Shown piece after piece: positions 1-49,727 of a stretch of DNA of 63,999 nt (positions are counted from its first letter, which is position 1; each line of letters starts with the position of its first letter). Position numbers and translations under genes: made by a program. The stretch comes from Rhizodiscina lignyota. Taxonomy: Eukaryota. Where the stretch lies: NCBI GenBank assembly GCA_010015805.1, contig ML978122.1:3258453-3322451 (forward strand). Direction: 5' to 3'. A model generated the notes under the pieces. The model did not search any database. It was not told the DNA's origin and saw only the letters and a list, made by a program, of their open reading frames with translations.

Positions 1-529
1 CGATGCAAGCTCGTGCTGCTGTTCAAGAGTCCTGCGGGCGGAGATTAACGTCAGCACAGCTTTGTCGCTCTGAGCGTGCCCATTGTCGAAGCTCCTACTC
101 CTCCTGAACGCGTTGCTCAAGGATCGTTCAATTCAACAAAATCCCTCATCAACTGAAGTAACACGATGCTCGAAATTGATTTGCAAATGAAAGAGGGTCC
201 CTACAAGTCCTGATCTCTGAAGAAGACAACGCTTCTCTGCAAGAACTTCAGTCAATCTACCGAGTAGCCTTTTTTGAATCTGTACGTACTTCCGCCACCA
301 GGAGAGCCAGCTCATCCTTCTGAGCATCTGTCAAACTACCCAATTGAACGCCTTTCAGCTCCGTTCCAATGTATGGCGTAAGCTCTTCAACTGCGGTTGC
401 CTCTGCCAGCAGCGACTTCTTTTCGGGGTCTGCGAAAAAAGCTCGGTCACGAGCAGGAGTGAACTCCTCATGTGGAGGATGAGGAGGTTTGTAAGCCAGC
501 ACTGCTGGGGTAACTGAATTGGCCACCAT
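1..529 (-). CDS. TauD/TfdA-family alpha-ketoglutarate-dependent (sulfonate) dioxygenase, 5' part; gene continues beyond the window edge
   Basis: ATG at 529. Exon 1 reads ...LTPYIGTELKGVQLGSLTDAQKDELALLVAE; after an intron, RSVVFFRDQDL (~205-236); after another intron, TLEQQHELAS (1-31). These are typical TauD N-terminal motifs. Confidence 0.85.
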
Positions 530-2672: not shown

Positions 2673-4477
2673 ATGACAATTGGTCGAGATACCGGCCGGC
2701 TCGAGGGAAAGACTGGAGAGTCTCTGCATCGCCAGGTCTCGAGTTCCCACATGGACGAACAGCATGCCGGGTCGAAGAAAATGGAAGATGCTGGCCCCAC
2801 AGAAGTTCAAAGACCCAGTTTCGACGGTGAATCCCTTGATTCGGTCAAGGGGGTTATTGATATTCAAGCCATTGATCCAGTATTGGCGAAGAAGATGGCG
2901 CTCGTCAATAAAGCGATTGACGATATCGGAATGACCAATTTCCAATGGAAGCTGTTCTTCCTCAATGGATTTGGATATGCAGTCGACTCGGTTAGTTCAC
3001 AAATACCTTCTTTCCTCCAACCGCATCCTTGTGCCGAGCTAATGCGTCATGACAGCTGCTCGTTGTCGCCCATTCTATTGCGAATCCGGCAGTGCAACAG
3101 GAGTATGGATTACCAAGTCCGCATGTCTCTGGAATTCCACTGGCATCGCAAGTCGGTCTTCTCGTCGGCGCTGGGATATGGGGATTCTCAGCCGATATCA
3201 TTGGCAGGAGGATCGCTTTTAACACAAGCTTGTTTTCCTGCGCCATCTTCGTGATCATTGCTGGAGCAATGCCTGGTTACATATCTTTTGCTGCTTTGTA
3301 GGTGCATCCGCCCTTGTTCCTCATCTGCGGCTGAGAAATGTCCCCAGAGTTGCCATCTATTCCGCTGGCGCTGGTGGAAATTACATCCTGGACGCCACCA
3401 GCTACTTGGAATTCCTTCCAACTACACATGCTTGGCTGGTCACCTTCATGGCCTTGTGGTGGGCTATCGGATATACCGTTACTGGGCTGCTCGCTTGGGC
3501 GTTCATGAGTAACTTCAGCTGTGCGCCAGACGCAACACCGCAGACCTGCACACGTGCGGACAACATGGGGTGGCGGTACCTCCACTTCACATGCGGAGCA
3601 CTTGTCTTGTTCATGGCCCTGGCTCGAGTTACCCTCATCAGGATGGTGCAGACACCACGATGGTTGCTAAGTCAGAATCGAGATGCCGAGGTGATCAAGG
3701 TCTTGAACAAAATATCGGCCGAGTCCAAAAACATGCACCATTTGACGCTGGAGCAGCTCCAAGCAGAAGGTGTCGTCCTTCACACCGATAAATCCGTTTG
3801 GTCCTCTTTGCGACTGAAGATGCACTTCAAAGGTCTCTTCCAGACGCGAGCGCTCGGATGGTCAACGGCCATGATATTGTGCAACTGGTTCGTGATTGGA
3901 ATGGTCACCCCACTCTATGGCGCCTTTCTGCCATTCTATCTCTACTCGCGAGGTGCAGATGTTGGGGATGATTCGAATTATACGACATGGAGGGATTACG
4001 CAATCAACCAGGCCGCTGGTCTTGTCGGTCCACTTATTGCTGCCGTCTTGATCGAAAGCAAATTCATTGGACGGCGGGGTACGTTGGCCATTGGTGCGGC
4101 AATAACGACGGCCCTCCAGTTTGGATATACACAAATCAAGACACCTGCACAGAATCTTGGTGTCTCGGCTGCTATATCTGCTGCATCGTGAGTTCATCTC
4201 CGACTCTTGATAAAGATCGCTGACTATGTCTAGCAACATCTACTACGGCACAATCTATGCGTATACTCCAGAAATCTTGCCGTCCGCTCATCGTGCGACT
4301 GGTTATGGTCTTTGTGTCGTTCTGAATCGGATCGGTGGCATCCTTGGTGTGCTTGTTGGAAGCTACGCGAATGTAGAGACGACAGCGCCGTTGTTCGTTT
4401 GCGCAGCATTGTTTGGCTTGCTCATCGTGCTCAGCCTGTTGTTGCCATTCGAATCAAGGGGCAAGAGAAGCCAATGA
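2673..4477 (+). CDS. Major facilitator superfamily transporter (sugar transporter/SV2-like)
   Basis: Exons give IGMTNFQWKLFFLNGFGYAVDS, WGFSADIIGRR (motif A), EFLP, QTPRWLLSQNR and YAYTPEILPSAHRATG. Introns at ~2991-3055, ~3298-3347 and ~4188-4233. Start codon uncertain (2673 or 2751). Confidence 0.9.
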
Positions 4478-5207
4478 TGAGTGAATTCACCGCTTCCCAG
4501 GCTAGTTTCGCTAGCCTCGATTATCCCCAAACAGCTGCAAGCTGCGATTGATAGCTGCAAGAAGGACATCCATCGAATGTGAGGTCTCTGGATAGATAAG
4601 TCTGTGGAGCAAATTAAGCATGTGCAACAAAGGTCGAAAACCGTGCTGTGTCAATGTTATAGTAGCTCATGCGGAGACCCCCGATAGAATTCCAGTACAC
4701 TCTAGCAATGTTTGCACTTTCAAAATCATCCTCATTGCAAACAGCGGAGCTCACGTTTGAGCATCGGCGTTCTGTCGCGCAGATTCTTGTCGTATCCCCC
4801 TTTCCATCAGATTCAGCGAGACTTCCACGTCTCTGACTTGCTAAATCTTAGCTGCTTTCCGGAGTCGTCAGCTTGGACAGTGTACTGACATGGCATCAAT
4901 TAATATAGAGACACAGGCAGAACACCGGAGGAGAAGACGAGAGGTGTTGAACATCCTTGGCCTGGCCCAGCACAAAACGATGTAAACATTACGAGATCAG
5001 CCCTTACCGTATAGGATTAGCGCACATTTTCAGAGGAAGGTGACAGGTCTTGGCAAAAATTTCCAGAAACACCAACTTGCATAGCTCTCTACTTCCCTTT
5101 TCTCCAATCTTTCGCGTGCCCGCGTCAACAGCCCATCAGCACGGCATTTCCTCTGCCACATACCTTTTCTGTTGCTGAAGTCTTCAATTCAAAATTTCAC
5201 TTACACT

Positions 5208-5840
5208 ATGTCTACGCAATCAAGCACCGGCCCAATCGTCGCCGCATCCATCGGCGTCTTCGCAACCGGCTTCCTCGCATACGCGCTATATTTTGATCAC
5301 CGGCGACGAACAGACCCCGACTTCCGTAAAGCACTGAAGCGCGAGAGCAAGAGACAAGCCAAGGCAGCGAAGGAGGAGGCTGAAGCGGAGGATGTGCAGC
5401 GCAGGAAGAAGATTCGAGATCTTGTGGCAGAGGCGAACGCTGAGGGATATCCTTCGGACCCAGAGAGGGTGGAGGAGTACTTCATGACAGAGGTGGCTGA
5501 AGGAGAGAAGAAGATTTCAGATGGTAGGTGTTTCCATGGGAGATGTGTTTAGGTATTCACGGATTGTCTAACGGGCGAGTGTAGGGTCTGACCCGGTCGA
5601 TGCAGCTCTGTGCTTCTACAAGGCCTTGAAAGTATACCCGAACCAAGAAGATCTAATCCACATCTTTGACAAGACGGTTCCTAAGGCAAGTGACCTCCCA
5701 GTGGAGGTTTGGCATGGACTAACGCCCTTCAACAGCCAATCCTTGACATCCTCGCTCAAATGATTGCGGCCGACCCGAGCATTCGCATCCGTTCCTCCAC
5801 TGCTGGCTCAGCAGCTTCCGACCGTGGCGTTGATGACTAG
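5208..5840 (+). CDS. TOM20: Mitochondrial outer membrane import receptor Tom20
   Basis: N-terminal TM segment followed by [34 protein letters not shown]; exon 2 [14 protein letters not shown]...DKTVPK; exon 3 [11 protein letters not shown]...DD*. Two introns, the second GC-AG. Confidence 0.95.
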
Positions 5841-6296: not shown

Positions 6297-7748
6297 TCAA
6301 CCCATCAAATCCATGATGCCTTCAGGCCAATCTCCCACCACGACCGCATTTCCGGGAACTCTCCCACTCACGGGGCTGAGCAACCTCAGCTTTTTCTTTG
6401 CCTCGTCCACTTCTGCAACATACATGTACCCTAGTACACTCGAGTCGCGGATCGTCTCCTGACTATCGGTTGCAGATGCGGTTGTTATGGCAAGCAGTGC
6501 GTTCTGGAGCATCATGCTTGGCATGACTTTGTCGTAAATGTTGGAGACGCCAAACGACGAGGGGTCGTAGTCGTCATCGTCGTCGTCTGCACCTGGGTTG
6601 AATGAGGATGAGTTACCAGATGTAGACTTGATTTTGTAGATGCTTATCTGGCTGAAGTCCACCATCTGCGTGTAAGGGCTGAGCGGCGCAGAAGGTACAC
6701 CGAAGAAATAGTTCCGCACTTGCGCCTGGCGCAGTTGCCGCATGTACAATTCGTCACGCTCGACACAGCCTTCGGATTTGGCGAGTCGGACCACAGAGAC
6801 GGGTGCGTCGCCCTCGCTGGTGCCGGCGCTGAAGAGTCGGGTCATGTCCTTGTAGAGACGCTCAGAGCCGAGGACGACGATCACATTGACGGAGAACTCG
6901 GACACGATATGTTGGATCATCTCATATGAGCCGCCTTTGCCGGACGAGATGCTGCCAGGAGTGTCGAGGAAGCAACCAGCCTGGCGCACTTCGTCGTCTT
7001 CCTGGAATCTACTCGTCACAGCCAGAGCCAGTCGTGTAATGAGTGCCTTGTATACTGCCTTATTCTCATCTGGCGTGCCGCACGCATAATGATACACCAA
7101 TGGCATCTTGATCGGAACCGCACTCGGGCCAGATATCGGACTGCTGCCCCAACCACCCACCTCTTCAACATCTAGAATGTCGGCAAACGTTGTCGCTGTG
7201 AGCGATCCCGGCACACTCAGCAATCCCTCTCGCGGATTCAAGTTCACGACTGTTGGCTGCCGTCCCATTTTGACCGCATAAGCCGTCAAGATCCTCATCA
7301 GGCTCGTCTTCCCGCAGTCCTCTGGCCCGACCACCAGCACTCTGGGCCCAATCGCATTGCTATTGGTCGCCGTGACCTGCCTCATCTCGTCCAGTGCAAA
7401 GTGCGCATTCGCAGCAACCCCCATCTCCGTCTCCTCGCCGACATAGTCGTTCTCCACCGCCCCGTAAATTTCGAGTTCGCACCCATGGTAGGTGAATATC
7501 GCGCCTTTGAGCCCGGTGAAGGTGTATTCGCGACCTGGAGCGAGTTCGGAGCCGAAGAGCTCAGCGGTGCCGGTGAGGAGCTTGATGCGGAGGGTGCGCG
7601 CGAAGGGGACTTCGAAACGATATTCGGTGTTGGCAGAAAGGGACTGTGTGCGGATTGAGGGCGCAGATTGGAGGGAGGATTGGGCGGTGGTGTCGACGCC
7701 GGTGGAGTTGAAGGAGAGGCCGGGGAGCTGGAGGCCGGGGATGGACAT
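6297..7748 (-). CDS. CLP1: mRNA cleavage and polyadenylation factor Clp1
   Basis: Intronless 483-aa ORF with EYRFEV, GTAELFGSEL, P-loop GPEDCGKTSL, FSVNVIVVLGSERLY and C-terminal EVDEAKKKLRLLSP. Confidence 0.95.
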   Translation of the reverse strand: MSIPGLQLPGLSFNSTGVDTTAQSSLQSAPSIRTQSLSANTEYRFEVPFARTLRIKLLTGTAELFGSELAPGREYTFTGLKGAIFTYHGCELEIYGAVENDYVGEETEMGVAANAHFALDEMRQVTATNSNAIGPRVLVVGPEDCGKTSLMRILTAYAVKMGRQPTVVNLNPREGLLSVPGSLTATTFADILDVEEVGGWGSSPISGPSAVPIKMPLVYHYACGTPDENKAVYKALITRLALAVTSRFQEDDEVRQAGCFLDTPGSISSGKGGSYEMIQHIVSEFSVNVIVVLGSERLYKDMTRLFSAGTSEGDAPVSVVRLAKSEGCVERDELYMRQLRQAQVRNYFFGVPSAPLSPYTQMVDFSQISIYKIKSTSGNSSSFNPGADDDDDDYDPSSFGVSNIYDKVMPSMMLQNALLAITTASATDSQETIRDSSVLGYMYVAEVDEAKKKLRLLSPVSGRVPGNAVVVGDWPEGIMDLMG

Positions 7749-8630
7749 TTGGGCGCTGTATTACAGAATAGCCTTCAGCTGCTTTGAACGTATATTCTGG
7801 AGGAGACTGAGCGTTGAAGAATGTGGTACAGCGCCACGCTTGCAAGGATAGCGCTTTCTTTGAATTGGAGCATATTCAGGACTAAGAAGTCTTGGCAAGA
7901 TCGGTGCTAGAGCTTGAACATGAGCAAAATGTGAAAGTACTTACGCAAAGGTAAACTGCTGGGTGGGGTGGAGCTCGAAAATGTGTTGATGTTGGTCGAT
8001 ATATGTGCCCCGGGCTTCATACGGGGGCCTCCTTAAGCTTGATCCGAATGCACCCATGCCGCGCTTGCCTAAATGGCTCTAGCTGCGCTCTTTACTTCAG
8101 CCATTATTCCCAGCTCCCTTTGACTCTGGACGTCATCCTTATATCTCAATGGCTTCATGTCCTGACCAATGGTCCTTTCTGGTTCTCGCGACGCCATTTC
8201 CCATCCCTCGATGCCAGACGTATTGCGTTGGTGATCCTGAAGTCGCGAGAACCGCCGAACTCCACCGCGTCGAGCGAGACGTTCATGGTGCTGCACTAGC
8301 CAGCTAGCCTGCCACCAACGCTCCACGTCTCGGCGCATTGCTTCGCGGAAATCGCGGAATCGGAGTTGCAGCATTGAGTCATCGCGATTACGAACCGCGC
8401 CTGTATCGCGCCATTCGCGCCTCGAAACACTTTCGATTCTCCTCGCTGTCAAGCTATTCCGCTCGTCTTACTATACCCATTGAGATGCAGTTTGAGTGTG
8501 CGTCGTTGTCGCCATCAAATTTCGGTGTTGGCATTGCGCTTTTTGTTGTTTTGACATGTCGTGAGAGTCGAGGGAGCTTGGATGCATCGAGAAACGTCTT
8601 AAACGAAACTCCGTACCCTCTTGAGCAAGT

Positions 8631-11138
8631 ATGACCTCTCAGGCACCGAAAGACCCTCAATTCCGCCGCAATGGCAAGCCTCAGGCGTGCGAGCCCTGCA
8701 GAAAGCTTAGGATCCGGTGCGACCATGGTCGTCCAATTTGTGGCAGGTGCAGCAGGAAAAGACCCGAAGCTTGTGTCTATCACCCAGCTCCTATGACGAG
8801 AGCACCAACCGCTGTTCGTCAATGGCATGTCAGCACTGTAGATGGAGGCCCTCCAAGATCATCACGTCCTTCCACTTCTGACACTTCCCCTGTGACGCCG
8901 ACTACCGCCACGTCCAATAATGCTGTCCGACCCGATGCTGCAGGACTACGCACTCCCCAATCCGTCCCAGGTCCAGGAGGATTGACACCTGGTATCGAAC
9001 CTCCTAAATCCTCCGGAGAACTCCTATCAGGTCCGGCAGCACAGCAAGATTCCTTCTTGGGCTCAACTAGTTATTCCGCTGCTCTCGCCGAGAGCCACCG
9101 TGGAAGTGTTGTAACTCCTGATCCCATGTTTGATCGTCCAGATACTCTCACGTTCACGAGATTCGTGACACCAGCGACGAAGAAGGCCGAGCAAGACCGG
9201 ATCAATTATGGCGCTCGCCTGCTGGCTCTGCTTCCTACCCTGCCTCTCGCCGAAGAGCTCATAGATCGGTATATGCGGTTAAGTCAGGTCGTCATTGTAC
9301 CTTCTATGGTTGTCAACTTGTCACTGCAAGCACTCCGGCGCCAAATGGATTCCTTCTCCACTGATGAGAAATGCTACGAGATGTCTCGACGGATCTTCAT
9401 CGAGACGAATAAACCAATCCACTACAATGAAGATCTTCGACCCAACAACTACCACGAATTCTTCACAGGCGAACACTTGCGCTGGGAGATTCTTGGGCTG
9501 ATATTCACATTGATGGGACTCTCTTGCATGACCATCGGGGAGGAGACTTCTTTTGCATCGACAATCGTGTCGTGCAAGGTCGACTGGAAGATCTTGATGG
9601 AAGAGATGCTGCTTGCGAGTAACCAATGCATCTCTTTTGCTTACCACTGCCAGACTCTCAACGATATGTTTGTATGGCTGCTGCATTGTAATCTGACGTT
9701 TCTGACTATGCATCGTGGGGAGTCTAGTAACGCCACCATGCCTGGTTTGACCGTTAACATACGCTAATTACGATAGATCACATCGTCTGGCGACGACTGG
9801 GAGACCTTTCTACTGCCGTGTACGAGATGGGCCTGCATCAAGACCCTGGATCAACAGATACGGCGCCATTCTTCCTGAAAGAGCTTCGCAAACGCTGCTT
9901 TGGCACAGCTTACTGTGCAGACAAAGCAATCGCAACCTTTTTGGGCAGGCCACCTCTCATTTCACGGCAGTACTCTTGCAGCACACTTCCAGTCGATCTC
10001 GACACAAGTGCTATCATGAGCTCTTCGCCTGGAGAACTGGCCAATCATCTTGCAGAGCTGGACTCTGATGGTTGGAACGTTGCAAAAGGACATTTTGTTC
10101 GGGCGACATTCCTGAGAGTCAGAATGGCTATCAGCTATATCCGAGAGGATGTGTTATTGTTGTCTCTGGGAACGGAAATCTCTGATTTAGAGGCCCGAGT
10201 CTAGTACGTGTTGCCTCTATCAGAGACAGTGATCAGACGCTGACAGACATTATCCAGCTCCACTCTCCAAAAGGCAGAAACGGCGTGGAACAACTTTCCT
10301 CAGTCTGCCCGTTACTCCGAGGCATGCTGGACCTCCGAGACGGATCCGATTATCTGCTTCATGATGCTACTTCTGTACCTCGACCACCTCCACTCGCTCT
10401 TCTTACTCTATCGTTTGTTGGTCAGGAAACGAGATACTGGAGCTGAGATGTTGGTTGATACGGCTCGGAAGCTACTATCCGCAGTCCTGGTGCTGTGTAA
10501 GGAGAGGAGTAGGCTTATTGCTATCGCCACAGACTTTCCGTGGATTGTAAGTGCATTATAGTCTGCTGAGCATACACCGTCTGACGACACAGATTTTATA
10601 CTATGGTCTTCCTTCAGCCGCTCTTCTCTCTGCTGAGCTTTATCGTCAGCAGGCACAACAACCGCCACCTTCTTCGCAATCTTTTCTCTCTACAGCAAAT
10701 ACCGTTCCGTTACCTCGTTCAGAACTCATCCGTAATCTCTCAGTCTTTGTCTCGGCTATGGAATGGGCCTCCTCGCCATCCGACGGAAACTATTCGCTTT
10801 GCGTCAGAGCCCGAAGGCATTTGTCAAGGGTGCTGGACGAAATCCTCGAGCAGCCCGCGAGCATGTCGCCTCCACCGGCCGCTGCTCCAGGACTGAATAC
10901 GACGCTGGCCAATGGTGGGGAACAGGATGGAACCGATGATGCGTTGAACGAGCAGGCTGCCGCTGGAACACTAGCAGCAATGGCCGGCGTTTCGAAGATG
11001 GATGGTATGCCACCTCCAAGCTCGCAAGGATTGGGTTCGATGCCAGGTCAGGATGATGACTGGCAGAATATGGAGTTCTTCCTGGATGGACTTGTCGATA
11101 ACAACATTGATATGATGGACTGGAATCTTGGACTCTAG
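8631..11138 (+). CDS. Zn(II)2Cys6 fungal transcription factor with fungal-specific TF (middle homology) domain
   Basis: CEPCRKLRIRCDHGRPICGRCSRKRPEAC binuclear cluster; ELRKRCFGTAYCADKAIATFLGRPP; LYYGLPSAALL. Introns at ~9728-9776, ~10204-10257 and ~10547-10593. Confidence 0.93.
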
Positions 11139-11197: not shown

Positions 11198-12529
11198 CTA
11201 CTTTACTTGGGCGGCATTATGATCTTGTTGATAGAATTGGCTCATATCAGATGCTAGCTTGGAATGGCTTCGGAGGTTCTGCTTTGTGTTCGTATCTGCC
11301 TCCCGGAGCGCCCGCAGGAACGGATCCATCTCCCCGACTGTTTCGGGATCTGGCTCATGGAGTCGCCGCTTATTTGCCTGGGACGTGGGATTGACAATGT
11401 CCAAGAATGTCTCCCGCCGCATCTGAGCGTAATGATCGAGGATTGAATCGGTTGCGAGGCCTTGATAGATGGCGATCAGTGCATCTGCCAATGCCGCCGC
11501 ATCCAGAAGACCGCCAGTTAGACCCAGCCCACCGAATGGATTACACACTGGCCCCATTAGTAGTTGCTTTGGCTGAGGTCCTGTAGACTTACGATGTGCG
11601 GCATCTCCTGCGAGCATTATGCGACCTTTACGGAATGTCCCTGCACACCGCTGGTTCAAGCGATACGGTGACATTTGATCCAATTTGTAGTTCGGAGGTT
11701 TGAGTCCTGGGAACATCTGTGCATATTTCCATGGCATTCGCTCCTCGATCTGCTGTTGCGTCAAACCGTCCCTCTCGCCATAAGAGACCCGATACAGCCC
11801 CTTCTCATTGATCTTCGCGACCAGCGCCCAATGCTCTGGATCTCTGCAGCACGTAAGATGCCTGATCCAAGTTCCGGGGAGACAATGCACTCACATGAGG
11901 AAATTCGCATCTTCCCAGCCGAATTTATCAAATGGATAGTACACGTTGGTCGAGACGAGCTGCTCCGGATACTGGAAACCATCGAAGGGTATCTCGCACA
12001 ATTTCCGGATGGTGCTGCGCCCACCGTCCGCACCAACCAGATAGTCTCCATCATAGAACTCGACTTCTCCATCAGGTCGTTCGGCCGCAACACGTACCGC
12101 TTCGTCATCGTTACGTTCTACCTTCACGACCCTCGTGTTCCAGCAAACCTTCACTCCTGGAAGTTTTTCGAGATGCTGCAGAATAACAGCGGCAAGCTCA
12201 TGCTGCCCGATTACCAGATTTTCATATGGATGCTCCGGCGTTACGAAACGCTCCATCCTCACGATTACTTCTCCAGTTGAAGTTTTGCGCCAGCATACAC
12301 TCTTGCCGCTTCCCCCTACCGCACGTACATCGGCTAGGATACCAGCGCGGTCGAGCTCTTTAACGGCGATTGGTTGGTATGCCATGGCTCTAGGAGATTC
12401 TTCGACTGCTGGGAGCGCTTCCAAGACTGTGACCTGAATGCCCTCTTTTGCGACACGGAGGGATGTGAGGAGTCCCACTGGCCCGGCGCCAACGACGAGG
12501 ACGGATATTTTGGGTTTTGTTTGTGCCAT
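11198..12529 (-). CDS. FAD-dependent monooxygenase (aromatic-ring hydroxylase, FAD_binding_3 family)
   Basis: VVGAGPVG Rossmann motif, YLVGADGGRS (DG motif), LAGDAAH and NPFGGLGLTGG. Two introns (~11847-11894 and ~11549-11592). Confidence 0.93.
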
Positions 12530-14384
12530 ATGGACGTGGTGTCTGGTGTGGAAGACTCCTGATTATCGGTGGAATTGTGAGATACTGGATATATTGGCGC
12601 TATGCCGAGGTAATGATAATAGTATTTGATTTGCTGCTTCTGGAGGCGCCTCAAAGTCAATCGACGCCAATGTTGCGTATACTCGGAAATCGGAGCGGTT
12701 ATTTGAATATAACACGGTTAGAACCATCAACTGCCGATTGATAGTTTTGCCAGGCTGTACCGGGGAAGTTCAATCTACGTATTTAAATATTTCGTAGTAT
12801 TCCCCACACCCCACACTGTTACCCCGCAGGTTGACTGCTTCAGGCTTTGAGTTCGGCTCTTGTCCCCATTACTTGTGGCTTAAGCCTCGCTGTCGCTGTC
12901 ATGGAGGTTGACCCTCGCTTACATACATGTGGCTGTATTGAAACTAGGCTTCTGGCAAATCTTGGTGTCTATGCACTTTATCTGCACGGCATTCAGCTTC
13001 GGCCTCATTGTCAACAGGAGGCTGCTCGGATATATTAAAATGTGTTTTACAAAGTTGGCCGCATCTCTCCCCCTCAATGTCGAGTGTCGACTACCTTCAG
13101 ATTTGTTTTTGCGGATTTGAGGCACTTTCCTTCCATTTTGCAGAGTATCGTATCTGGTACCAAGTACATCGTTTTATATTTCCGGTTAGCTCTCGACGAT
13201 GGATGCTTTCAACACATTCTTCACTGAGTATACTACATATTGGCTTGCTAAAACCTCTTACGCCAACAGTGTTACAGATAACACTTGTACCGCTCTGTTT
13301 TCACAGGAACGTACAAGAGTGCTATCGGACTACGCATCACAATGTAAAAATCGCTGAATTGGAAACACGGCTTGGTACTAGAGACTAGTGCGAAAATGAA
13401 GACAACCATGTTCTACTCCAGATCGCTTGGGTCCCAATACAAGCGGATGGTTTCCCTTAAGAGACCTTGATCCCCTAATCAATGATATCTCCCCAGACCG
13501 AAACCAACCTTGTGAATCTCTTCAAAATTAAGAGCGCGTTCGAGTATTCCGGTACCTGTGGTCAAATGTTCCATTTGGAGCGCTTCGACCAGGAAACCAC
13601 GTCTTAAACACGCGCCTTTTTGATCCAAGTGAAAGGCATGGCCAATGTTTACCTGGTCCCATGATCCGGCGCTACTATCGTCCACGGAATGTTTTGGGGA
13701 AGATGCGGCGATATTGATATGATGAAGAGTATCGTCGATTGCTTCAAAGGGCGGGCCTGTATTCATGCAATGTTTCTCGCCCAAGCTTGGACAATGCTAC
13801 AAGAATGCAGATTGAGGAAGCTGATGATGCATACCACGCAATATTCAGGGCGCATAGAGCGCCGAACACGCTTCCATTGGTGGAAATTTTGACCCACCGA
13901 GGTTGCAGCAAAGGGAGACATGCACTCACTCTTAACCGAGCTTAGTGGGATGAAGGAGAAGTTGGATTTGCGTCAGCGAGACCCCAATTTGCTCAAACTG
14001 TCCTCGAAGCACCACAGCCTCTTGTGTTCCAGATCAGCGATGGAGAAATAAAGAGCGTGGATCTCATTCCGAGGCTATCGCGACGGGTCATGCTGAGTCT
14101 GTACGCCCTCATGCTGGGACTTCTGAGATGCTCTAGCCGTGTCAACTGCTTAAAAATCGGCTGAAAGTACCTGTGAGGCGAACGAGAGCGCTGAAGACGC
14201 CAAAAGTGCACTGAGGCGACTAAAGATAAGAGTAAAGAAATGTACGAGAAGGTAACTGCAGATACAGACTCCACTGTTACGGAAGTCCAGATCGGAAGTG
14301 CTCCACTGAATAGAGAGCATGTGCTCGGGACTTGGAGACGGAGACTGCGGTAATATGGGTTCGGCATTCTGGTACAATTTTATC

Positions 14385-15291
14385 TCAAGCCTTGTTGACT
14401 AAAGTTAGCGTCTCGAAATTGCTGTATCTCGAAAGGTACCGCTCATCTCTCCGGTAATAATAAAGGGTCAATCTGTCCCAGTTTCTCGCCGCCTCCGGTA
14501 GCTGTCGATATCCTGGATCGAATACCAGCAGCCTACGCTTCCCATTCTGGTCTCGCTCAATTCCAACAATAGTCAGAGAATGCGAGGGTCTTTGCAGGAA
14601 AATGGGAGAACGATTGGTTCGAATAATCCGGTCTGACCTTTGACTGGTTCCAGAGGTAAAGTGTGCCTCAATGGAGTCGAGAAGCTCTAGCCATGCCTTT
14701 TCACCTGTGAATGCCGCCGCTTTGCAGGGCAAGTTGAGACTTTGGAGTAGAGCTTGGGCCTATTAAGTATGAGTATGAGTAAGTAATACTCTTTTGGCGA
14801 ATGACAGACAGACACACTTCCGATGTACCAATGTGTTTTCGAGTTCCTGTGATTCCACCCGTTTCGATGCGGCCATGATCATTGAAACCCATATTCCAGG
14901 CCTTTTCGATCATCTCCTGCAGCTCCAGTATCGAATAGATAGGATGCGGCTCTGGCAACATCATCTGTATGTTGCGATAAGCACAGAAATGGTTTCCCTC
15001 GCCACGAAGCTTGCATATCTGGGTCACGGACTGATCGCAGAGGTACGCGAATTCGACATCTTGATCCTTTTCTAGTAGATCGGCCAACAGGTTGATAACA
15101 CCAGACACCTTATTTGTTGGTAACTCCTTCTCGACGATCCTCGCGACGCGGTCTGGCATGCGCTCCTCGAAAGCATGACGACCAAGTTCACGTTTCTGAG
15201 ATTGGGGTCAGAATAATATTAAATAGTACAGGCAAATAGAAAAGGAGAGTCTTACTCCAAGACGACGGACATCTGGGGCGCTCTCGTCCAT
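14385..15291 (-). CDS. Peptidase family C78 (ZUFSP/Mug105-like deubiquitinase-type cysteine protease), short form without zinc fingers
   Basis: Exon 1 MDESAPDVRRLG (ATG 15291), intron, then KRELGRHAFEERMP...NHFCAYRNIQM (catalytic Cys), IEKAWNMG, TRKHIGTSE. After an intron come PIFLQRPSHSLTIVGIE (His) and LLVFDP (Asp). Confidence 0.8.
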
Positions 15292-17743: not shown

Positions 17744-18470
17744 ATGTCCAAACTCATCGTTGTTACAGGAGCAACGGGCCGTCAAGGCGGTCAAGTGGTT
17801 CGCGCCTTATTGAATCAGCCATTATTCTCATCCGTTGAATACGCAATCTGTGCAATCACGCGCAATCCAGCATCTCCCGCAGCAAAATCACCTGCCTCGC
17901 TCTCACCGGCCGTTAAGCTCAGCCAAGGTCATCTGTCTAGGCCTTTGAAGCTGGTACAATCTCTTCCGGAAAGGCCATGGGCGATTTATATCATGACGAG
18001 ACCCAAGAACACGGAGGTTTAAGATGCGGCACGTCTCATTGATGCTGCTTTGGAAACCGGCGTTCAACATTGTGTTATCTAGCGTGGATCGTGGGCACAA
18101 CTCTACCGAGGGCTTCAATCGATCTTGCAGAGTCCCCGTATGGAACACGAAACATCACATTGAAGCACATCTTCGCCAACGCATTGCAGCAGGAGACGGC
18201 AAGCCCTGCACTTACACCATCATTGGGCCCGTCTTCTCCCTTGACAATTTGGCCCCGAACTTCTTCGGAAGACTCACAGCAACCTGGTGGGACTCATTCC
18301 TCCAAGGAAAGCCTCTCAGGGTAATTGATACTATGGATGTTGGCAACTTTGCTGCTCAAGCACTCCTTGACCCTACCTCTCCCCGCTTTGCAAATGCCGA
18401 AGTCAATCTAGCCGGAGACGTACTCACCTTTGATCAGGCGAATAAGACTTTCTATCAGCGGAGTTGCTGA
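17744..18470 (+). pseudogene. NmrA-like/isoflavone-reductase-like NAD(P)-binding protein, disrupted
   Basis: MSKLIVVTGATGRQGGQVV...AITRNPASPAAK. In-frame TAA at 18020-18022, after which the same frame continues DAARLIDAALETGVQH. Frameshift at ~18070 into VLSSVDRG...TKHHIEAHL...LAGDVLTF. No intron signals seen that would rescue it. Confidence 0.8.
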
Positions 18471-18963: not shown

Positions 18964-19967
18964 TTACTGCTTGCTAGGAGCAGCGCAGCCGTAGCCGTAT
19001 CCAAGGTTGATGGAGCAGCCGGCATCCTCTTCAAGGTCACCGCGCTTGATCATTTCCCCGAGGTGTCGCTTCATGATCTCGTTCTCAACAACGTCCCGCT
19101 TGCTTGAGGCACAGCCGTAGCTATAGCCGAGGTTGACTGAGCAGCCAGCATCCTCCTCAAGTCCGCTATCTGTCGCACGTCTCTTGATCTCCTCCTCGAC
19201 GGCGGCCCTCTTGGATGGAGCACATCCGTAGCTGTAGCCAAGGGTGACCGAGCAACCGGCATCGGGCTCAGCCGTCGAGCGCCTCTTGATCTCAGCATGG
19301 CGCTTGGCAATGGCGTCCTCAACCACGGAGCGCTTGGAAGAAGCACAGCCGTAGCTGTAGCCAAGGTTAACAGAGCAGCCAGCGTCCTCCTCGAGGTCAC
19401 CACGCTTGGTCATCTCCGCCAAATGACGCTTCGCAATCTCGCCTTCGACAAAAGCGCGCTTGGAAGACGAGGCGCAGCCATAGCTGTAGCCGAGCGTGAT
19501 GGAGCAGCCGGCATCCTCATTGAGGTCGCCATCGGTTGCGCGCTTCTTGATTTCGTTCTCGACAGCGGAGCGCTTGCTCGAGGCGCAGCCATAGCTGTAA
19601 CCAAGGTTGACAGAGCATCCAGCATCCTCCTCAAGATCGCCGCGCTTCACCATCTCGGCCATGTGGCGCTTTGCGATCTCTCCCTCGACGACATCACGCT
19701 TGGAGGAAGCGCAGCCGTAGCTGTAGCCAAGGTTGACGGAGCAACCAGCATCCTCATTGAGGTCTGTATCAGTTGCACGAGGAAGGAGGCCCTTGGACTT
19801 CAGAGTCTCCAAGATTTTGAGACCTGCGTAATGTCAGCGGCTGCGGATAAGACTGGGATAGGAGAAGGTGGCCTACCTTCAGCTGGGGAAGATGCCTGGA
19901 TGGTTGCTGGGGCGCCAGCAACGGCGGTCGCCGTAGCGAGCATAGACACAAGCTGGGAGAAGAGCAT
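18964..19967 (-). CDS. Secreted Kex2-processed repeat protein (KEP); putative fungal RiPP precursor, 316 aa, 7 core repeats
   Basis: Exon 1 19967-19877 encodes a signal peptide, MLFSQLVSMLATATAVAGAP. Intron 19876-19824 (GTAGGC...GCTGAC...CAG). Exon 2 encodes seven (E/P)DAGCS[VI][NT]LGY[SG]YGCA units bounded by KR/RR sites. Confidence 0.92.
18970..19775 (-). repeat. Coding tandem repeat array (7 core units plus spacer peptides)
   Basis: The + strand shows the motif family CAGCC(G/A)TAGCT(G/A)TAGCC(A/G)AGGTT recurring seven times with minor variants. Confidence 0.95.
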
Positions 19968-20129
19968 TTTGATTGAATGAAGTGTTTGTCCAAACGACTT
20001 GACTTGTGCGATTTTGCAAAGCTGCTTGGATGAACGAAGGGGAGCTTGGTGTCTTGCTTGGCTGACGACTCGCTATGGTGCTGAGATCGGAGGCGATGGT
20101 TCTCGTCAAAAGCCGTGAAATCGAGTGCA

Positions 20130-20135
20130 TTTATA
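20130..20135 (-). promoter_or_regulatory. Candidate TATA box of the precursor gene
   Basis: GGTATAAATGC on the - strand, ~165 bp upstream of the ATG at 19967. Position only; not validated. Confidence 0.45.
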
Positions 20136-22322
20136 CCTATCAGGACGACACCATTATCGCCCCTCGCGACTCTATCGTCGCAGCTCTTTCTGCATTTCTG
20201 GAAGGTCTTCGTTATCGTGCTCATCAACATCGTCGCTTTCGACTTTCGAGTCAGTTTCGCGCCCGTCTGTCTCATCAGTTGTACCTCCAGGCCCACAAAT
20301 GCTGAGCTGATTGTTGATCTAAGAGTCCGTAAACGTTGACTGATAGTCCCTGAACGTTGAGTTGAGGAAGGTTTCGTAGTGATCAGGTCGAAAATCTTGC
20401 TCTTCATTGCAATGATATTCGCGTCGTCAGCGCTGAACGGCCCTTCTGAATGTGACTTTGAAATACCGAGTATTGATCAACCCTTGGCTCAGCAAGACTG
20501 TGGAGAAGTCCATGTCGACTAAATCGAAGGTCCTTCCTTTTATTTCAATGATTTTCGAACCCCCAGCGAGTGAGCATTTGTAAACTCCCTAGTCTCGCGC
20601 GGAGACTCGAGCCGGTTTATCTTTGATCAACGAACGATGACCGTGAGCAGTCAAGTTGGCCTCGCAAGGAGTATACGCAGGGGCTACGACCGCTGATGGA
20701 ATTCCGAGAGTTGTACCGTGTACGAGTTCAGGCGATTCTGTCAATCATCAGCCGCGACAGTCACGAGATAATAGACGAGAGAGAATCATCACTCAAGATA
20801 GAAATCGGTAACGAGGTTTGAGGAGAAGGTGTTTCTCGTTCTCGGATTAACACACCCCCTTTACCTTCTCCTTCGGTATGTACACAGAGCAGCACTAGCG
20901 CGCTAGGGGCGACAACCACGACTGAAGTTGATCATAACTTGGGAGAGAAATAGTAGTAGAACTAACGAGAGGAGGGGACATAGTACTGCCGCGAAGGAGA
21001 TCGACAGTGCGCTCTCTAGTTGCAGCAAATTACGAGCAGAACGGAACAACGAAAAGCCCTCCTCTTCATGAAAGTGGCAAGAAAAAGACAAATAGAAAGA
21101 CGACACACTGTGGCTACACATTACTAGAGATATCAGAAATGATTCCCTGACTCGCGCAACCACACCAAGCCTTCAGCTTATGGAATGTAAAGTCAGATTG
21201 TAAGAACGAAGGAGAGAGATGTCGTTGGATTAAAGTGCGTTGATCGTGCTCCATCAGGACAGCTTGCAGGGACCTTGGGACGAGAAATATGGAGCCAATA
21301 CCGACGCACAGTAACCCCATGAGATGGCACAGTAATACGCTCTCAAAATACAGCCAGAAGCGGCAACCTACGATTTCCCCAGCAATGAAGGCATGGTGAC
21401 TTACGGATCCACATGGGGTATTTTGGCCCCAAAGAGGCATTTCTACTGCTATCATAGGCTAGCCTCGCATTCGCATTACGCTCTAACCTCGTAATCGTAT
21501 TAATCCGACTAATTAAATACTTTCCCGTGCCCGCGATTTTAGCGATGTGACAGGCTAAGACAATTCCATTGGATGGGAATGCTCACCTTTTGGCACCAGC
21601 CTGTTTATTCCCGGCAAAATAAGATTTTAACCTTAACACTACTCCTGTACGCCTCGGTGCGAACCGATCTACTGTGGGGTTGAGGGGTTGCAACATCTGC
21701 ATAAGTACAATGCTCTCAAATTATCACAGGTCGTATTTTCGTAGCCTTCACGCTAAGAACGGGTACATATCTCGTCAGAAGAATATTTGGGAACCAATTC
21801 GCGGAAGGTATCTGGACCTTTGGCCCCAAGATCAACGGGCCTGATAAAACGTTCAGTTACACGTGCAGCCTCATTTCAGCTCAAGTGGCCTCAAGCCACG
21901 GCAAATTCGAGAGCATGTCGCATCCTCCTGCCACATTCAGCCTTGAATCTGATACAAACGAGCAATTCAAGGGCTAGTTTACCGCTGGTATCCGTCACAC
22001 GAGCCCCACGCTGTCTCGTCCACGACTTGGCAGACTTGCATTCAACCTGAAAGTCGTCCGCATTATCCGAACGATGTCGGAGGCGTGAGAATATGGTCCG
22101 CACGCTCTTCGCAACGCAAAAGATAGCCTCTGACATGAAAGGGGCGGAAGGACAATCACAACCATCCTGAGTGATAGTTGAGCTAAACATTTGCATATCA
22201 CTTTCCCTCCCATTTTGAAGATCTTTCACCTTGGAGCCTTGAAAGAGTCTTGTGGTCTGCTATAGACATGGCTTTGCTTCGCTCCGCTCTGTCTTGTACA
22301 TTCCATTCAAACTTCTCACAAA

Positions 22323-23291
22323 ATGGAATTGGATGAAAAATATCACGACGAGGACATTGCCCTGCGCTCTTCAGGCGAAGAGGAGTCCAAGAGTGACCCT
22401 CATGAAGCCTTTCTACCATCCGGTAACAAGAGAAGATATGTCCAGATCCAAGTCTCAATTCATAGGTGGATGCTGCATGTTCTGCTCCTGAGTATCAACC
22501 TTCTGGCACTCATCTATCTTGTCTTGTCTTTGCGGGAGAGTAAGGTGGAACGTCTGGTTTATTGTAAGCGTTATCTTTTCAGTCTCCTTCTGCTCATAAG
22601 CTTACATTTTATAGCACCTCTCAACGATATTATCACACCCACCAGGGAGTATCGAAACATCACGCTCGGCGATCGGACGCCGTTCACAGATGCTCCAGGT
22701 CCTGCTGTCGATGCGCTGTGGAATAGCATCTCTGTTCCTCCCGGAGATGTCGGCGTCGTTATCCTGAATCAGCAAGAGAAAGACAAGTGGGGTGTTACGA
22801 CTGTGAAATTGGCAGATGGTTCAGGATATGCAGCCACAATCGACGTGTTCCATCAACTTCACTGTCTGGATCAGCTGAGGCAATTCATTTTCAATGACAC
22901 GTACAAGATCTCACCTACAGAGCATCCGCTGTGGGAAGATCATATCGGTAAGTTGCTTACCAATGTCATGTCCTGTTGCTGACTCTTACTCAAAGCACAT
23001 TGCATTGACTCAATTCGCCTCTCTCTACAGTGCAGTGCAGACGTGAGTTTGATGCCATGGAATTGGATTCGTGGTTATGCGCTGCCCTGGCCTGATTTTC
23101 GGGCCAAGCATGAGTGTCGTAACTGGGACGACATTGTCGCATGGGCATTGGACCGGAAGCTGGATACGGAGAAGCCAGGCATTTGGGTCCATCCAGAACT
23201 GGGAAATAAAGACCTTTTGGATGAGAGCTTCACGCAAAATCCTTTGGAGGATGGGAAGGAAATTGAATATTTGGAGGATAATCTCTACTAG
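22323..23291 (+). CDS. DUF3328 / UstYa-like oxidase (fungal RiPP maturase family)
   Basis: N-terminal TM helix; VYSPL after removing intron 22564-22614; PGPAVDALW; first motif VFHQLHCLD. After removing intron 22948-22995, second motif HIAHCIDSIRLSLQCSADVS. C-terminal HECRNWDDIVAWA. All are hallmark DUF3328 motifs. Confidence 0.95.
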
Positions 23292-45100: not shown

Positions 45101-46143
45101 CCAGGATGAGCAAAGACGACGCGCTTTGATCCAAGCTCGTGCACCTCCGAAGCCACGTCAGAAGTATTTGTGGCAACCAAATAATGATGACCTCTGGACC
45201 GAAATGGTGTCTCGTGGTAGAACTCTTTGGGACAGGCTCAACAGCGCGTTGAACAGCAATGGTCCAGATAGAGCCATCATGGACCCTGCTCCTGCTTATA
45301 GGTCACCGGTGGAGCGGATTAAGGGTGCCACGGCTGGTAAACCCCTCCTTTTTGAGTATGCTATGAACACTATGCTGTTTACCCACCGAGGCTATTTGGG
45401 GATAGATTATGAAGAACCCGACTTTAATGTGGTCAAGCTCGAATGGCCACGCACAGGAGACCAGAAGGCATGGTTTTATAATCAAGTCAGTTTTAGGACC
45501 GGCACCATCATTGTAAATTCAATTCAGCGCTACGACAGTGAGCATGGTCCCATTCAGGAATGGAACAAGGACCACACAGAAAAAATGCAACAAGCAGTGG
45601 CCTACAATCAGTACATCAAGCAAACTTATACCGCACCGCACTACTGGGCAGACGTGGCATGGTATTCGTGGTACACTGAAGCGACAGATGGTTGCGGCGG
45701 AGACTCGGAACAGGAGAAAGCGTTCCTGTCAAGTCGATTGCGTAGCCTGAGACAGGTCATCCAGCAACAGGTCACGAACAAGCTCACCAGGATGGCAATC
45801 CAGTATGTCTGGGCTCAACTCGGTATCGGTCCAGAGAATGTTCAACAGTATACATGGGTCACGCCAGAAAATGGCGATCTATTCTTTGGCCTTCTTGGCT
45901 CCCCCAACGGACTTGGGGTTGCCCATCTAGTGAGCAAACCTACCGGCTTTGCAAGTATAATTTGGTAACACTGATATATGTCAGCTTAGGCAACATCATA
46001 ATGAGCTGGGCAAGAAGACGATATCCCACATCTCAATTACCACTGTCGACAACACCGGGGAAGTGACTCTGACCGATTCCCCAGAACAGCAACAAGAAGA
46101 CGCTTGGCCTTTCTACCTGATTTTTAACCTTGTTGATGTGTGA
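42133..46143 (+). CDS. Large (~1250 aa) secreted modular protein with Ser/Lys/Thr-rich repeats and a conserved-looking C-terminal domain
   Basis: Signal-like MLFTTLVFSQWICPLFLFSLLITAAP, then intron(s) at ~42219-42321. ORF 42359.. joins ORF 44511.. via a phase-1 intron at ~44406-44463. Final intron ~45930-45985, then LRQHHNELGKKTISHI...*. Motif FFGLLGSPNGLG. Confidence 0.75.
43757..44300 (+). repeat. Coding tandem repeat, about 4 units of 141/141/132/132 bp
   Basis: Unit starts (G/A)TTCTTC(A/G)GAGAA at 43761, 43902, 44043 and 44175. The last two units are near-identical. Confidence 0.9.
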
Positions 46144-49244: not shown

Positions 49245-49727
49245 TAGTAATGAGACCACCGATGAGGAGTGCTGGAAGCTAGTTGTGTTTCGCAAAGACG
49301 GTTTTAAGAAAGTATCGCCAGAACAAAGTGATATATGGTGAGCGAAGGCTGGAATATGCGCCAGCAAACGATGGTGTCTACCGCTTTCCATATTGAACAA
49401 CCAAGCGAGAAGACAACAAACAGGCAAACATGACGGTACTTTCATGATGGAGACGCCAACAAGATAGACTCAGTTGTGCAAAACCAAAGGAAATCAGATT
49501 GAACAAAGAGAGTCTGCGCCCAGTTCTGAACCGCGCTTTCGACTGTTGGTACAGAAGCGATTGACTCAAATTCTGTCGATGACGAATATCTTCCAAGGAA
49601 AGCAGTACTATGTAGTTCGTCCATTATCCCAGCTTTGAAGTGTATGAGTCATGCTTTGAATGCCGCAGACTGCGCGAGTGGAATGTTCCACTCTTTGATA
49701 ACCATACTGATAAAGAGAAGAGCACAT

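Follow-up and report, generated by a model that had tools for sequence, protein, structure and literature searches.

A fungal gene cluster is defined operationally as dikaritin-type when a DUF3328 gene lies close to a precursor that has an N-terminal signal peptide and tandem repeats, whether perfect or imperfect, of at least 10 residues, with kexin sites between them (PMC9632046). The mature product of such a cluster has a side-chain macrocycle that depends on UstYa. According to the survey in PMC7329392, a DUF3328 gene is found within 15 genes of 22% of 7878 KEPs, with a peak at the adjacent position, and Tyr occurs in 65.6% of the repeats of the KEPs that have such a neighbour. The UstYa/DUF3328 copper enzymes are described in PMC12435403 as disulfide-linked dimers, anchored in the membrane by a single N-terminal transmembrane helix and with a lumenal C-terminal domain, which are O2-dependent, carry binuclear copper and share the motif HxxHC(x)nHxxHC. 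The same source likens the cyclase AprY to DUF3328 enzymes in these copper and O2 traits and adds hydroxylation, halogenation, desaturation and others to the reactions of the family. AprY belongs to the asperipin-2a cluster of Aspergillus flavus, which contains the precursor gene aprA, the UstYa homologue aprY, the isoflavone reductase gene aprR and the transporter gene aprT, and in which the core FYYTGY receives two Tyr-to-beta-carbon ether rings (PMC6514808).

Here, we analysed a window of 63,999 nucleotides from Rhizodiscina lignyota (contig ML978122.1), in which a repeat precursor with Cys-bracketed, Tyr-containing cores lies beside a UstYa gene. On balance, we lean towards reading the two genes as a minimal dikaritin-type, that is UstYa-dependent, RiPP cassette, whose product would contain both a Cys disulfide and a Tyr cross-link made by the UstYa enzyme. 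A close UstYa gene and kexin-separated tandem repeats, both part of the definition given above, are seen here, as is a hydrophobic N-terminus that resembles a signal peptide.

The closest described system is asperipin-2a, which also has a very small cluster, where one UstYa homologue accompanies a repeat precursor of the Kex2 type (PMC6514808), a Tyr-rich core containing Gly, and an isoflavone-reductase-type gene, its counterpart here being an NmrA-like gene that adjoins the precursor. It differs in several respects: the core studied here has 11 residues, is bracketed by two Cys and does not resemble FYYTGY in sequence, the reductase-like gene is apparently broken, and there is no adjacent transporter gene. 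The ustiloxin and phomopsin systems (precursors UstA and PhomA, enzymes UstYa/UstYb) resemble the locus in their signal peptide (signal-like here), in the arrangement of tandem cores between KR sites, in the acidic residues just upstream ('EDYxI' as given in PMC6339444, 'EDAG-C' here) and in a Tyr that stands two residues from its cross-link partner, in Y-x-I there and in Y-x-Y here, where the partner is predicted. Unlike the present cores, theirs have 4-6 residues and no Cys, and their clusters, as described in PMC7329392 and PMC6514808, carry a tyrosinase, several UstYa paralogues, and methyltransferase, P450/FMO and peptidase genes. None of these accessory genes was found among the ORFs scanned within 13-31 kb here.

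Precursor gene and cores

The precursor gene consists of two exons on the minus strand, running from 19967 to 18964. Exon 1 (19877..19967; 30 codons plus 1 base) provides the start codon and a signal-peptide-like N-terminus, in which residues 1 to ~20 are hydrophobic (10-residue Kyte-Doolittle means of ~1.0-1.7 over the first 16 windows) and small residues come next. It is followed by an intron of 53 nt (19824..19876; GTAGGC...CTGAC...CAG), for which length, ends and restored frame were checked, and by exon 2 (18964..19823), which includes the TAG stop at 18964-18966 and in which translation and repeat comparison revealed seven repeats. Splicing yields an open CDS of 951 nt, encoding 316 aa. 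In the translation there are 19 dibasic-delimited fragments: the seven that carry a core are each flanked by KR or RR at either end, and short acidic or helical spacer fragments lie between them. All 14 Cys and all 14 Tyr of the precursor are sited in the seven cores.

Each core is a C-x9-C unit of 11 residues with two Tyr inside. Repeat comparison and pattern matching placed CSVNLGYSYGC at core 1 (19711..19743), core 2 (19585..19617), core 4 (19345..19377) and core 6 (19111..19143), CSITLGYSYGC at core 3 (19474..19506), CSVTLGYSYGC at core 5 (19222..19254) and CSINLGYGYGC at core 7 (18985..19017), all on the minus strand. The original prediction had listed these four variants, the first four times and the others once each, and minus-strand translation of positions 18964-19821 of the window reproduced them; its range of 18970-19760 contains all seven cores, and the gene strand, which it had left unstated, is minus. 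As it had also proposed, C1, S2, L5, G6, Y7, Y9, G10 and C11 are invariant within the gene, with variation at positions 3 (V/I), 4 (N/T) and 8 (S/G). The back-translated core pattern matched the window seven times, always in the precursor, and had no match in any of 100 dinucleotide-preserving shuffles.

As judged from the coding sequence, the core is under purifying selection, in that its protein sequence is kept and its codons drift, because synonymous differences outnumber non-synonymous ones (77 and 26, respectively, in 231 core codon comparisons) in repeats whose DNA copies are only 63-82% identical. Indeed, Ser2 is encoded by four codons and Gly6 by three. Tandem Repeats Finder called no array on the precursor, owing to an alternating period and diverged copies; a separate repeat search did detect them.

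When exon 2 was used as query in a word-indexed search of public proteins of 156-499 aa, there were no matches, not even to the precursor's own protein. The precursor therefore seems never to have been annotated, the deposited annotation apparently lacking it, and this apparent absence shows how easily such genes are overlooked.

The UstYa gene and its surroundings

The DUF3328 setting that the original prediction had assumed is real. A full-length UstYa/DUF3328 gene is encoded on the plus strand at 22323-23291, and its start lies 2.35 kb from the start codon of the precursor (19967, minus strand), which makes the two genes immediate divergent neighbours. Exon 1 (22323..22563) encodes the N-terminal region and a predicted transmembrane helix, exon 2 (22615..22947) carries HQLHC (residues 160-164) together with the first part of the second motif, and exon 3 (22996..23291), which contains the stop, completes HIAHC (residues 190-194) across the splice junction; the exons were checked by translation and, for the last two, by their motifs. 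The spliced translation is identical to the deposited protein of 289 aa (P0003), which thus has both HxxHC copper motifs and matches PF11807 with 146 bits (cut-off 25) over profile positions 13-219 of 220. The 2.35 kb between the two genes (19968..22322) are presumed to be their shared promoter region, and there was no Pfam match in any ORF of at least 55 aa within it.

Structure prediction was informative mainly for the predicted membrane anchor. The AF2 model of UstYa, built from a 3-sequence alignment, had a mean pLDDT of 40, and only the helix at residues 33-75 was confident (10-residue blocks from 31 to 70 with pLDDT 64-93, the remainder below 50). A PDB sequence search with the protein gave nothing meaningful (best E 0.34). 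Prediction of a complex of two UstYa lumenal domains with one 42-aa repeat unit, run without controls, scored 0.01 against a mark of 0.34 and is neutral on binding.

At the 3' end of the precursor, an NmrA-like gene of the isoflavone-reductase type (17744..18470, plus strand) appears to be disrupted: an in-frame TAA interrupts it at 18020-18022, the reading frame shifts near 18075, and Pfam NmrA matches fall in two frames. Whether it is a member of the cassette is uncertain. Among the scanned ORFs next to the precursor and UstYa pair, none encodes a tyrosinase, a peptidase or a transporter, so that trimming and export have no candidate gene among these neighbours.

Relatives of the pair

A phmmer search of 1.84 billion representative proteins returned 11 matches, three of which are true relatives of the precursor. 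In the 20 cores of the resulting four proteins, C1, I/V3, L5, Y7 and Y9 are constant (20/20) and every core has two Cys and two Tyr. The second Cys is at position 11 in three of the proteins and at position 8, giving Y-C-Y, in the fourth (P0008). Thus, the terminal GC that had been predicted to be invariant is so in the precursor gene but not across the family, as P0008 lacks it and has its second Cys between the two Tyr. The flanks are unrelated among the four proteins, and the position of the kexin site is also wholly different. With a constant core and differing flanks and kexin-site positions, the conserved unit begins at the first Cys, and the comparison argues that the Cys belong to a conserved functional unit and not to a disposable flank.

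One of the relatives, KAF2256775.1, is from Trematosphaeria pertusa. The closest full-length non-self match to the UstYa of the window is another protein of the same fungus, KAF2256776.1 (52% identity), and HQLHC and HIAHC recur in the T. pertusa UstYa relative (P0005). The two accessions are consecutive and on the same 5.01-Mb contig, adjacency being read from the accession numbers, and for this reason the precursor and UstYa pair appears to be conserved in a second fungus.

The other eight phmmer matches (P0007, P0010-P0016) were set aside on inspection as long TPR-like or other repeat proteins that share only a periodic C-x-x-N-L-G-x-x-Y. A UniRef label on the T. pertusa precursor relative, 'Ecp2 effector protein domain-containing', was not backed by any Pfam match with an E of 0.01 or lower. 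In a word-indexed search of longer proteins with a profile of the repeat unit, only P0006 matched. A metagenome scan with the family alignment gave 24 pattern matches, one of which passed tblastn (L001); it has a single GCKVTLGYSYGY in a long ORF without repeats or dibasic sites, and was discarded as a chance match.

Discussion

In the cassette that we propose, the N-terminal signal-like segment would bring the 316-aa precursor into the secretory pathway, and kexin cleavage at the KR/RR sites would release seven core-bearing fragments of 22-40 residues. Oxidation in the ER would join the two Cys of each 11-residue core as a disulfide, and UstYa, as a predicted membrane-anchored, lumenal enzyme with binuclear copper, would then modify the constant L-G-Y-x-Y. 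By analogy with the Y-x-I of ustiloxin and phomopsin and with the ethers of asperipin-2a, its likeliest reaction would be formation of a Tyr-O-to-beta-carbon ether macrocycle across Y-x-Y. The variable flanks would then be removed by other peptidases, and the expected product would be a bicyclic peptide of ~11 residues with one disulfide and one ether ring. A bicycle of this kind and, as another option, Cys-Tyr or thioether cross-links had been put forward in the original prediction, whose reading is partly supported here. The ether macrocycle is put forward only as the commonest precedent for Tyr-rich KEP cores, because the UstYa family catalyses many other reactions; in P0008, a second Cys between the two Tyr would alter or clash with such a ring.

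To our knowledge, the cores of the characterised dikaritins (ustiloxins, phomopsins, asperipin-2a, victorin and epichloecyclins) are small and without Cys. The original prediction had stated that no Cys-containing dikaritin core is known; a text search of the open literature, which did not extend to the peptide sequences tabulated in the large KEP catalogues, found none and so agrees with this claim without proving it. Since no characterised dikaritin core with Cys was found, we also found no precedent among them for a disulfide coexisting with UstYa chemistry. Only a few of the fungal RiPPs characterised to date are remarked to contain disulfide bridges (PMC10840396). One of the ribosomal fungal peptides with such bridges is acalitide (AcaA/AcaB), the rings of which include disulfides presumed to come from general ER oxidoreductases; unlike the present precursor, that of acalitide is an 81-aa protein with a single core, which undergoes protease-catalysed head-to-tail lactamisation and has neither kexin repeats nor DUF3328 (PMC10840396). 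We believe that, with a conserved two-gene cassette in which two Cys surround Y-x-Y, the chemistry of UstYa would reach a scaffold that is constrained by a disulfide or cross-linked through sulfur. Having a single enzyme and a single precursor, whose gene holds four natural variants of the core, and with more variants in the relatives, the cassette would also be close to the simplest system in which to study substrate recognition by DUF3328 enzymes. The precursor gene is a promising lead for a new cyclic peptide, as predicted from sequence.

Among the alternatives, the one that survives best keeps the dependence on UstYa and changes the chemistry, either to an S-C cross-link, for example a Cys-Tyr thioether as in galactose oxidase, or to hydroxylation, halogenation or desaturation of a core residue without a Tyr ether. 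In galactose oxidase, such a thioether is formed with copper and O2, all 20 cores have two Cys and two Tyr, and the Y-C-Y of P0008 places a sulfur beside both phenol rings. The DUF3328 family uses copper and O2 for a wide range of reactions (PMC12435403), and a further thioether precedent is given by the amatoxins and phallotoxins, fungal RiPPs with a side-chain cross-link between Cys and an aromatic residue (tryptathionine, Cys-Trp), albeit from basidiomycetes, with MSDIN precursors, prolyl oligopeptidase processing and no UstYa (PMC9233826). However, we found no DUF3328 reaction at sulfur in the literature examined, and free thiols in the oxidising lumen of the ER and Golgi normally pair first and would compete for copper. 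The shift of the second Cys from position 11 to 8, with the Tyr fixed, also suits a structural disulfide better than a geometry-specific S-C bond. We thus regard this alternative as unlikely. The more specific proposal that the Cys are themselves UstYa substrates, with their sulfur joined to a Tyr ring or beta-carbon by the copper enzyme of the cassette, we consider quite unlikely. If true, it would add a cross-link so far without description among dikaritins or DUF3328 enzymes and would define a new class of Cys/Tyr-cross-linked fungal RiPPs common to several Dothideomycetes, with the Y-C-Y of P0008 as a variation on this chemistry.

The precursor might instead be an ordinary Kex2-processed repeat protein that gives rise to secreted simple disulfide loops (a signal, effector or antimicrobial peptide), with the UstYa gene there by coincidence or for another substrate. 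A C-x9-C loop can close without an enzyme of its own, the scanned ORFs next to the pair contain no further gene for tailoring, a peptidase or a transporter, and, in the figures of PMC7329392, a DUF3328 neighbour is absent for 78% of KEPs, most being considered linear or unmodified. Against this, precursor and UstYa are immediate divergent neighbours and their pairing recurs in T. pertusa, where each partner is the closest relative found. Furthermore, the constant Y-x-Y contains the type of residue on which UstYa cyclases are described to act (PMC7329392, PMC6514808). These points make simple disulfide loops unlikely.

A third possibility is that the gene encodes an alpha-type mating pheromone precursor of the fungus. 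Two-Cys ascomycete alpha pheromones are likewise Kex2-processed repeat proteins with two Cys per repeated peptide, and alpha pheromones that have two Cys and derive from KEPs are reported by Le Marquer et al. for 13 species of Dothideomycetes (PMC6339444). The nearest ESM-Atlas cluster by features was 'Pheromone 1' (0.75), a value that shuffled sequences often exceed. The Cys spacing and motif are different, however: the two-Cys motifs printed in PMC6339444, which are from a xylonomycete and a basidiomycete yeast and not from Dothideomycetes, separate the Cys by 6 or 7 residues and carry a G-Q or PCW signature, compared with C-x9-C and LGYxY here. The X-Ala or X-Pro dipeptides recognised by STE13 are absent, the seven core fragments beginning with LK, GD, AT, GD, ST, AT and GD. 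Finally, a DUF3328 neighbour is lacking for 98.6-100% of the KEPs annotated as pheromones in PMC7329392, whereas there is one here and, apparently, also in T. pertusa. A role as pheromone precursor is therefore very improbable.

A decaying or spurious repeat-containing ORF, with no functional gene, would fit the precursor's absence from the public protein collection searched and the broken look of the neighbouring NmrA-like gene, but is hardly credible given 316 codons that are open once a single canonical intron is removed, an excess of synonymous over non-synonymous changes in the cores, and the same core in relatives from three other records.

Precursor gene and repeated cores

Translation of the minus strand yielded a two-exon precursor gene in which exon 1 (19967-19877) encodes MLFSQLVSMLATATAVAGAPATIQASSPAE, a 53-nt intron (19876-19824) starts with GTAGGC, contains a branch-like CTGAC site and ends in CAG, and exon 2 runs from 19823 down to a TAG stop at 18964-18966. 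The spliced coding sequence of 951 nt (316 codons) contains no internal stop. All seven C-x9-C cores lie within exon 2 (cores 1 to 7, minus strand: 19711-19743, 19585-19617, 19474-19506, 19345-19377, 19222-19254, 19111-19143 and 18985-19017), and the four core variants and copy numbers listed in the original prediction, a Cys loop enclosing Tyr-x-Tyr, agree exactly with this translation. The back-translated core pattern matched seven times in the 64-kb window, always in the precursor, and in none of 100 shuffles. All 14 Cys and all 14 Tyr of the protein are located in the cores. KR/RR sites delimit 19 fragments, of which seven bear a core (e.g. GDLEEDAG-core-ASS-KR), the others being short spacers, DVVEGEIAKR and HMAEMVKR among them.

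The DNA copies of the repeat are only 63-82% identical to one another, and Tandem Repeats Finder reported no array. Within the cores, 231 codon comparisons (21 core pairs x 11 codons) revealed 77 synonymous and 26 non-synonymous differences, with four codons used for the invariant Ser2 and three for Gly6. The excess of synonymous differences, the divergence of the DNA copies and the varied Ser2 and Gly6 codons thus indicate that the core amino-acid sequence is being maintained.

Neighbouring UstYa gene

In the ORFs scanned with Pfam, the sole secondary-metabolism signature near the precursor comes from a plus-strand UstYa/DUF3328 gene that is divergent from the precursor and 2.35 kb away. Of the 114 stop-to-stop ORFs at least 110 aa long, the scan covered 85, the omitted 29 being mostly shorter and overlapped by a longer ORF in another frame or strand; it also took in every one of the 131 ORFs of 55-109 aa that overlap 13-31 kb. 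A three-exon model (22323-22563, 22615-22947 and 22996-23291; introns GTAAGC...TAG and GTAAGT...AAG) translates to a protein identical to the deposited 289-aa P0003 (NCBI name: hypothetical protein, Rhizodiscina lignyota), which scores 146 bits against PF11807 (cut-off 25), the match spanning positions 13-219 of the 220-position profile. Its HQLHC (160-164) and HIAHC (190-194) form the HxxHC(x)nHxxHC motif, which holds a binuclear copper centre in CctR, a membrane-anchored, lumenal, O2-dependent dimer according to PMC12435403, where CctR-like behaviour is also reported for the asperipin cyclase AprY.

No tyrosinase, second UstYa, P450, peptidase, methyltransferase or transporter was matched by Pfam in the ORFs scanned at 13-31 kb. 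An alpha/beta hydrolase (24030-24893, minus strand), with no signal-like start by eye, and an aquaporin (28362-29121, minus strand) were found there, and an NmrA-like gene (17744-18470, plus strand) adjoins the 3' end of the precursor. In the latter, the reading frame that encodes the GATGRQG Rossmann motif is interrupted by an in-frame TAA (18020-18022), followed by a conserved-looking DAARLIDAALETGVQHCV segment, after which the Pfam match resumes in the +1 frame; judged by its reading frames, the gene resembles a pseudogene or the result of an assembly error. A Zn2Cys6 transcription factor (Zn_clus and Fungal_trans; 8625-10201, plus strand) and an FAD-dependent monooxygenase (FAD_binding_3; 11201-12562, minus strand) lie 6.4-10 kb past the precursor 3' end. 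Genes of these two types are included in ustiloxin-type clusters, but here a UFM1-protease-like gene (Peptidase_C78, 14388-15207) and unassigned ORFs separate them from the precursor.

Relatives of the precursor and of the UstYa protein

A word-indexed search of a 5.8-billion-protein collection with exon 2 returned no match, not even the precursor itself, and because exon 2 failed to find its own protein, the precursor gene (18964-19967, minus strand) has apparently never been annotated in public records; the neighbouring UstYa is deposited. With phmmer run exhaustively against 1.84 billion representatives, 11 matches reached E 0.001 or better, three of them true relatives: P0006 (150 aa, 64% identity; cores CSVNLGYSYGC, CSITLGYSYGC and CSITLGYNYGC), P0009 from Trematosphaeria pertusa (177 aa; cores C[KNE]I[TVS]LGYGY[GSK]C) and P0008 (270 aa; cores such as CSITLGYCYEL). 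Neither a profile search nor a metagenome scan enlarged the family.

The remaining eight matches, long TPR-like or other repeat proteins mimicking a periodic C-x-x-NLG-x-x-Y, were rejected on inspection. Through this likeness, the phmmer E-values of the TPR-like ones (P0007, P0010-P0012, P0014-P0016) against the precursor go down to 1.8e-13, a pitfall when this Kex2-processed repeat protein (KEP) is assigned to a family automatically. The UniRef labels of P0009 ('Ecp2 effector protein domain-containing protein', with no Pfam support) and of the UstYa proteins P0003 and P0005 ('Tat pathway signal sequence', where Pfam supports UstYa instead) look like automatic mislabels.

The four proteins together have 20 cores, all of which contain C1, I/V3, L5, Y7 and Y9, and 18 of which contain G6. 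The second Cys occupies position 11 in all 14 cores of the precursor, P0006 and P0009, and position 8, between both Tyr, in all six of P0008. Core flanks are unrelated among the four proteins and the kexin site shifts, lying 8 residues upstream of C1 in four of seven precursor units and two of three P0006 units (those whose core-bearing fragment starts directly at KR/RR), 1-2 residues in P0009 and 2-3 in P0008. That conservation begins at the first Cys argues that the Cys would be part of the functional peptide or recognition unit, not of a trimmed flank. N-x-S/T sequons occur inside the Cys loop in two of the four P0009 cores (CNITL..., CNISL...) and in none of the window cores; the core may be N-glycosylated in T. 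pertusa only.

Among 176 candidates scored in the word-indexed search, the best full-length non-self relative of P0003 was P0005 from T. pertusa (52% identity). P0005 (KAF2256776.1 / XP_033691780.1) and P0009 (KAF2256775.1 / XP_033691779.1) are encoded on one contig of 5,011,004 bases. In annotated eukaryotic genomes, accessions that follow one another usually belong to neighbouring genes, and from the accessions, rather than the DNA, we infer that these two are neighbours. If so, precursor and UstYa have been kept together and have diverged together in two fungi. In the Umemura survey of 7878 KEPs (PMC7329392), 22% lie within 15 genes of a DUF3328 gene, DUF3328 counts peak at the adjacent position, and Tyr occurs in 65.6% of DUF3328-neighboured KEP repeats versus 38.2% of others.

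A further UstYa fragment, P0004 (131 aa, on a 642-base contig; 74% identity to the window enzyme), reads into intron-like sequence after EDHI, exactly where the second intron of the window gene sits; the intron position is therefore common to a third fungus, which might also be the source of P0006.

Proposed product and alternatives

There is good support for the cassette as such, a genuine KEP coupled to UstYa. The precursor, judging by its sequence features, would enter the secretory pathway and be cleaved by kexin, and a C1-C11 disulfide would form by general ER oxidation, by analogy with acalitide (PMC10840396); free thiols would hamper a copper enzyme, a second argument for the disulfide. 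UstYa would oxidise the constant L-G-Y-x-Y segment. PMC6514808 and PMC9233826 provide two precedents: the Tyr-Ile ether formed at Y-x-I in ustiloxin and phomopsin, and the Tyr-to-beta-carbon ethers of asperipin-2a. Since the residue between the core Tyr varies (S, G, N or C), just as the position between Tyr and Ile does in Y-A-I and Y-V-I, we favour a ring across Y7-x-Y9, which would give a bicyclic peptide with one disulfide and one ether. We give this explanation as a whole, chemistry included, slightly better than even chances; the specific chemistry alone is its weakest part and merits distinctly less confidence.

The same cassette might instead cross-link sulfur, for instance as a Cys-Tyr thioether, or install a hydroxylation, halogenation or desaturation, an unlikely reading that the Y-C-Y form of P0008 keeps tenable, although the mobile second Cys rather favours a structural disulfide. 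Next comes a plain disulfide-loop KEP beside a coincidental UstYa, which we doubt, as the pair apparently recurs in T. pertusa. An alpha-pheromone precursor is highly improbable: Le Marquer et al. describe two-Cys alpha pheromones in 13 Dothideomycetes, but the motifs printed in the text of PMC6339444, from a xylonomycete and a basidiomycete yeast, space the Cys by 6 or 7 residues, and none of the first dipeptides in the present precursor (LK, GD, AT, GD, ST, AT and GD) has the STE13 X-Ala/X-Pro signature; in PMC7329392, 98.6-100% of annotated pheromone KEP genes have no DUF3328 neighbour. Finally, the codon pattern in the cores makes a non-functional ORF unlikely.

Comparison with known clusters

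With the signal peptide judged by hydropathy only and the product predicted, the locus appears to fit the operational definition of a cluster for dikaritins, UstYa-dependent RiPPs (PMC9632046). The closest architecture is the four-gene asperipin-2a cluster, whose isoflavone reductase gene aprR has a counterpart here in the NmrA-like (isoflavone-reductase-type) neighbour, albeit a seemingly broken one. Unlike every characterised dikaritin found, the core has 11 residues and always two Cys. A full-text literature search for the core motif found nothing relevant, and no Cys-containing dikaritin core emerged from publications that link cysteines, disulfides or thioethers to dikaritins, UstYa or DUF3328; this absence from print is provisional, because the sequence tables of two large KEP catalogues lay outside the search. 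Disulfide-bridged members are few among the fungal RiPPs characterised so far, as stated in PMC10840396. The locus is a good genome-mining lead, though no surprise in principle.

Elsewhere in the window, several long ORFs, e.g. 42254-45965 (plus strand) and 54087-55583 (minus strand), had no Pfam match. Pfam identified DUF427 (1085-1897), sugar-transporter fragments (3223-4188 and 31614-31970), MAS20/TOM20 (5085-5549), CLP1 (6300-7760, minus strand), a short-chain dehydrogenase (30419-31281), DUF6604 (32498-33475), a methyltransferase (48198-49469, minus strand) and a beta-lactamase-like protein (51821-53799).
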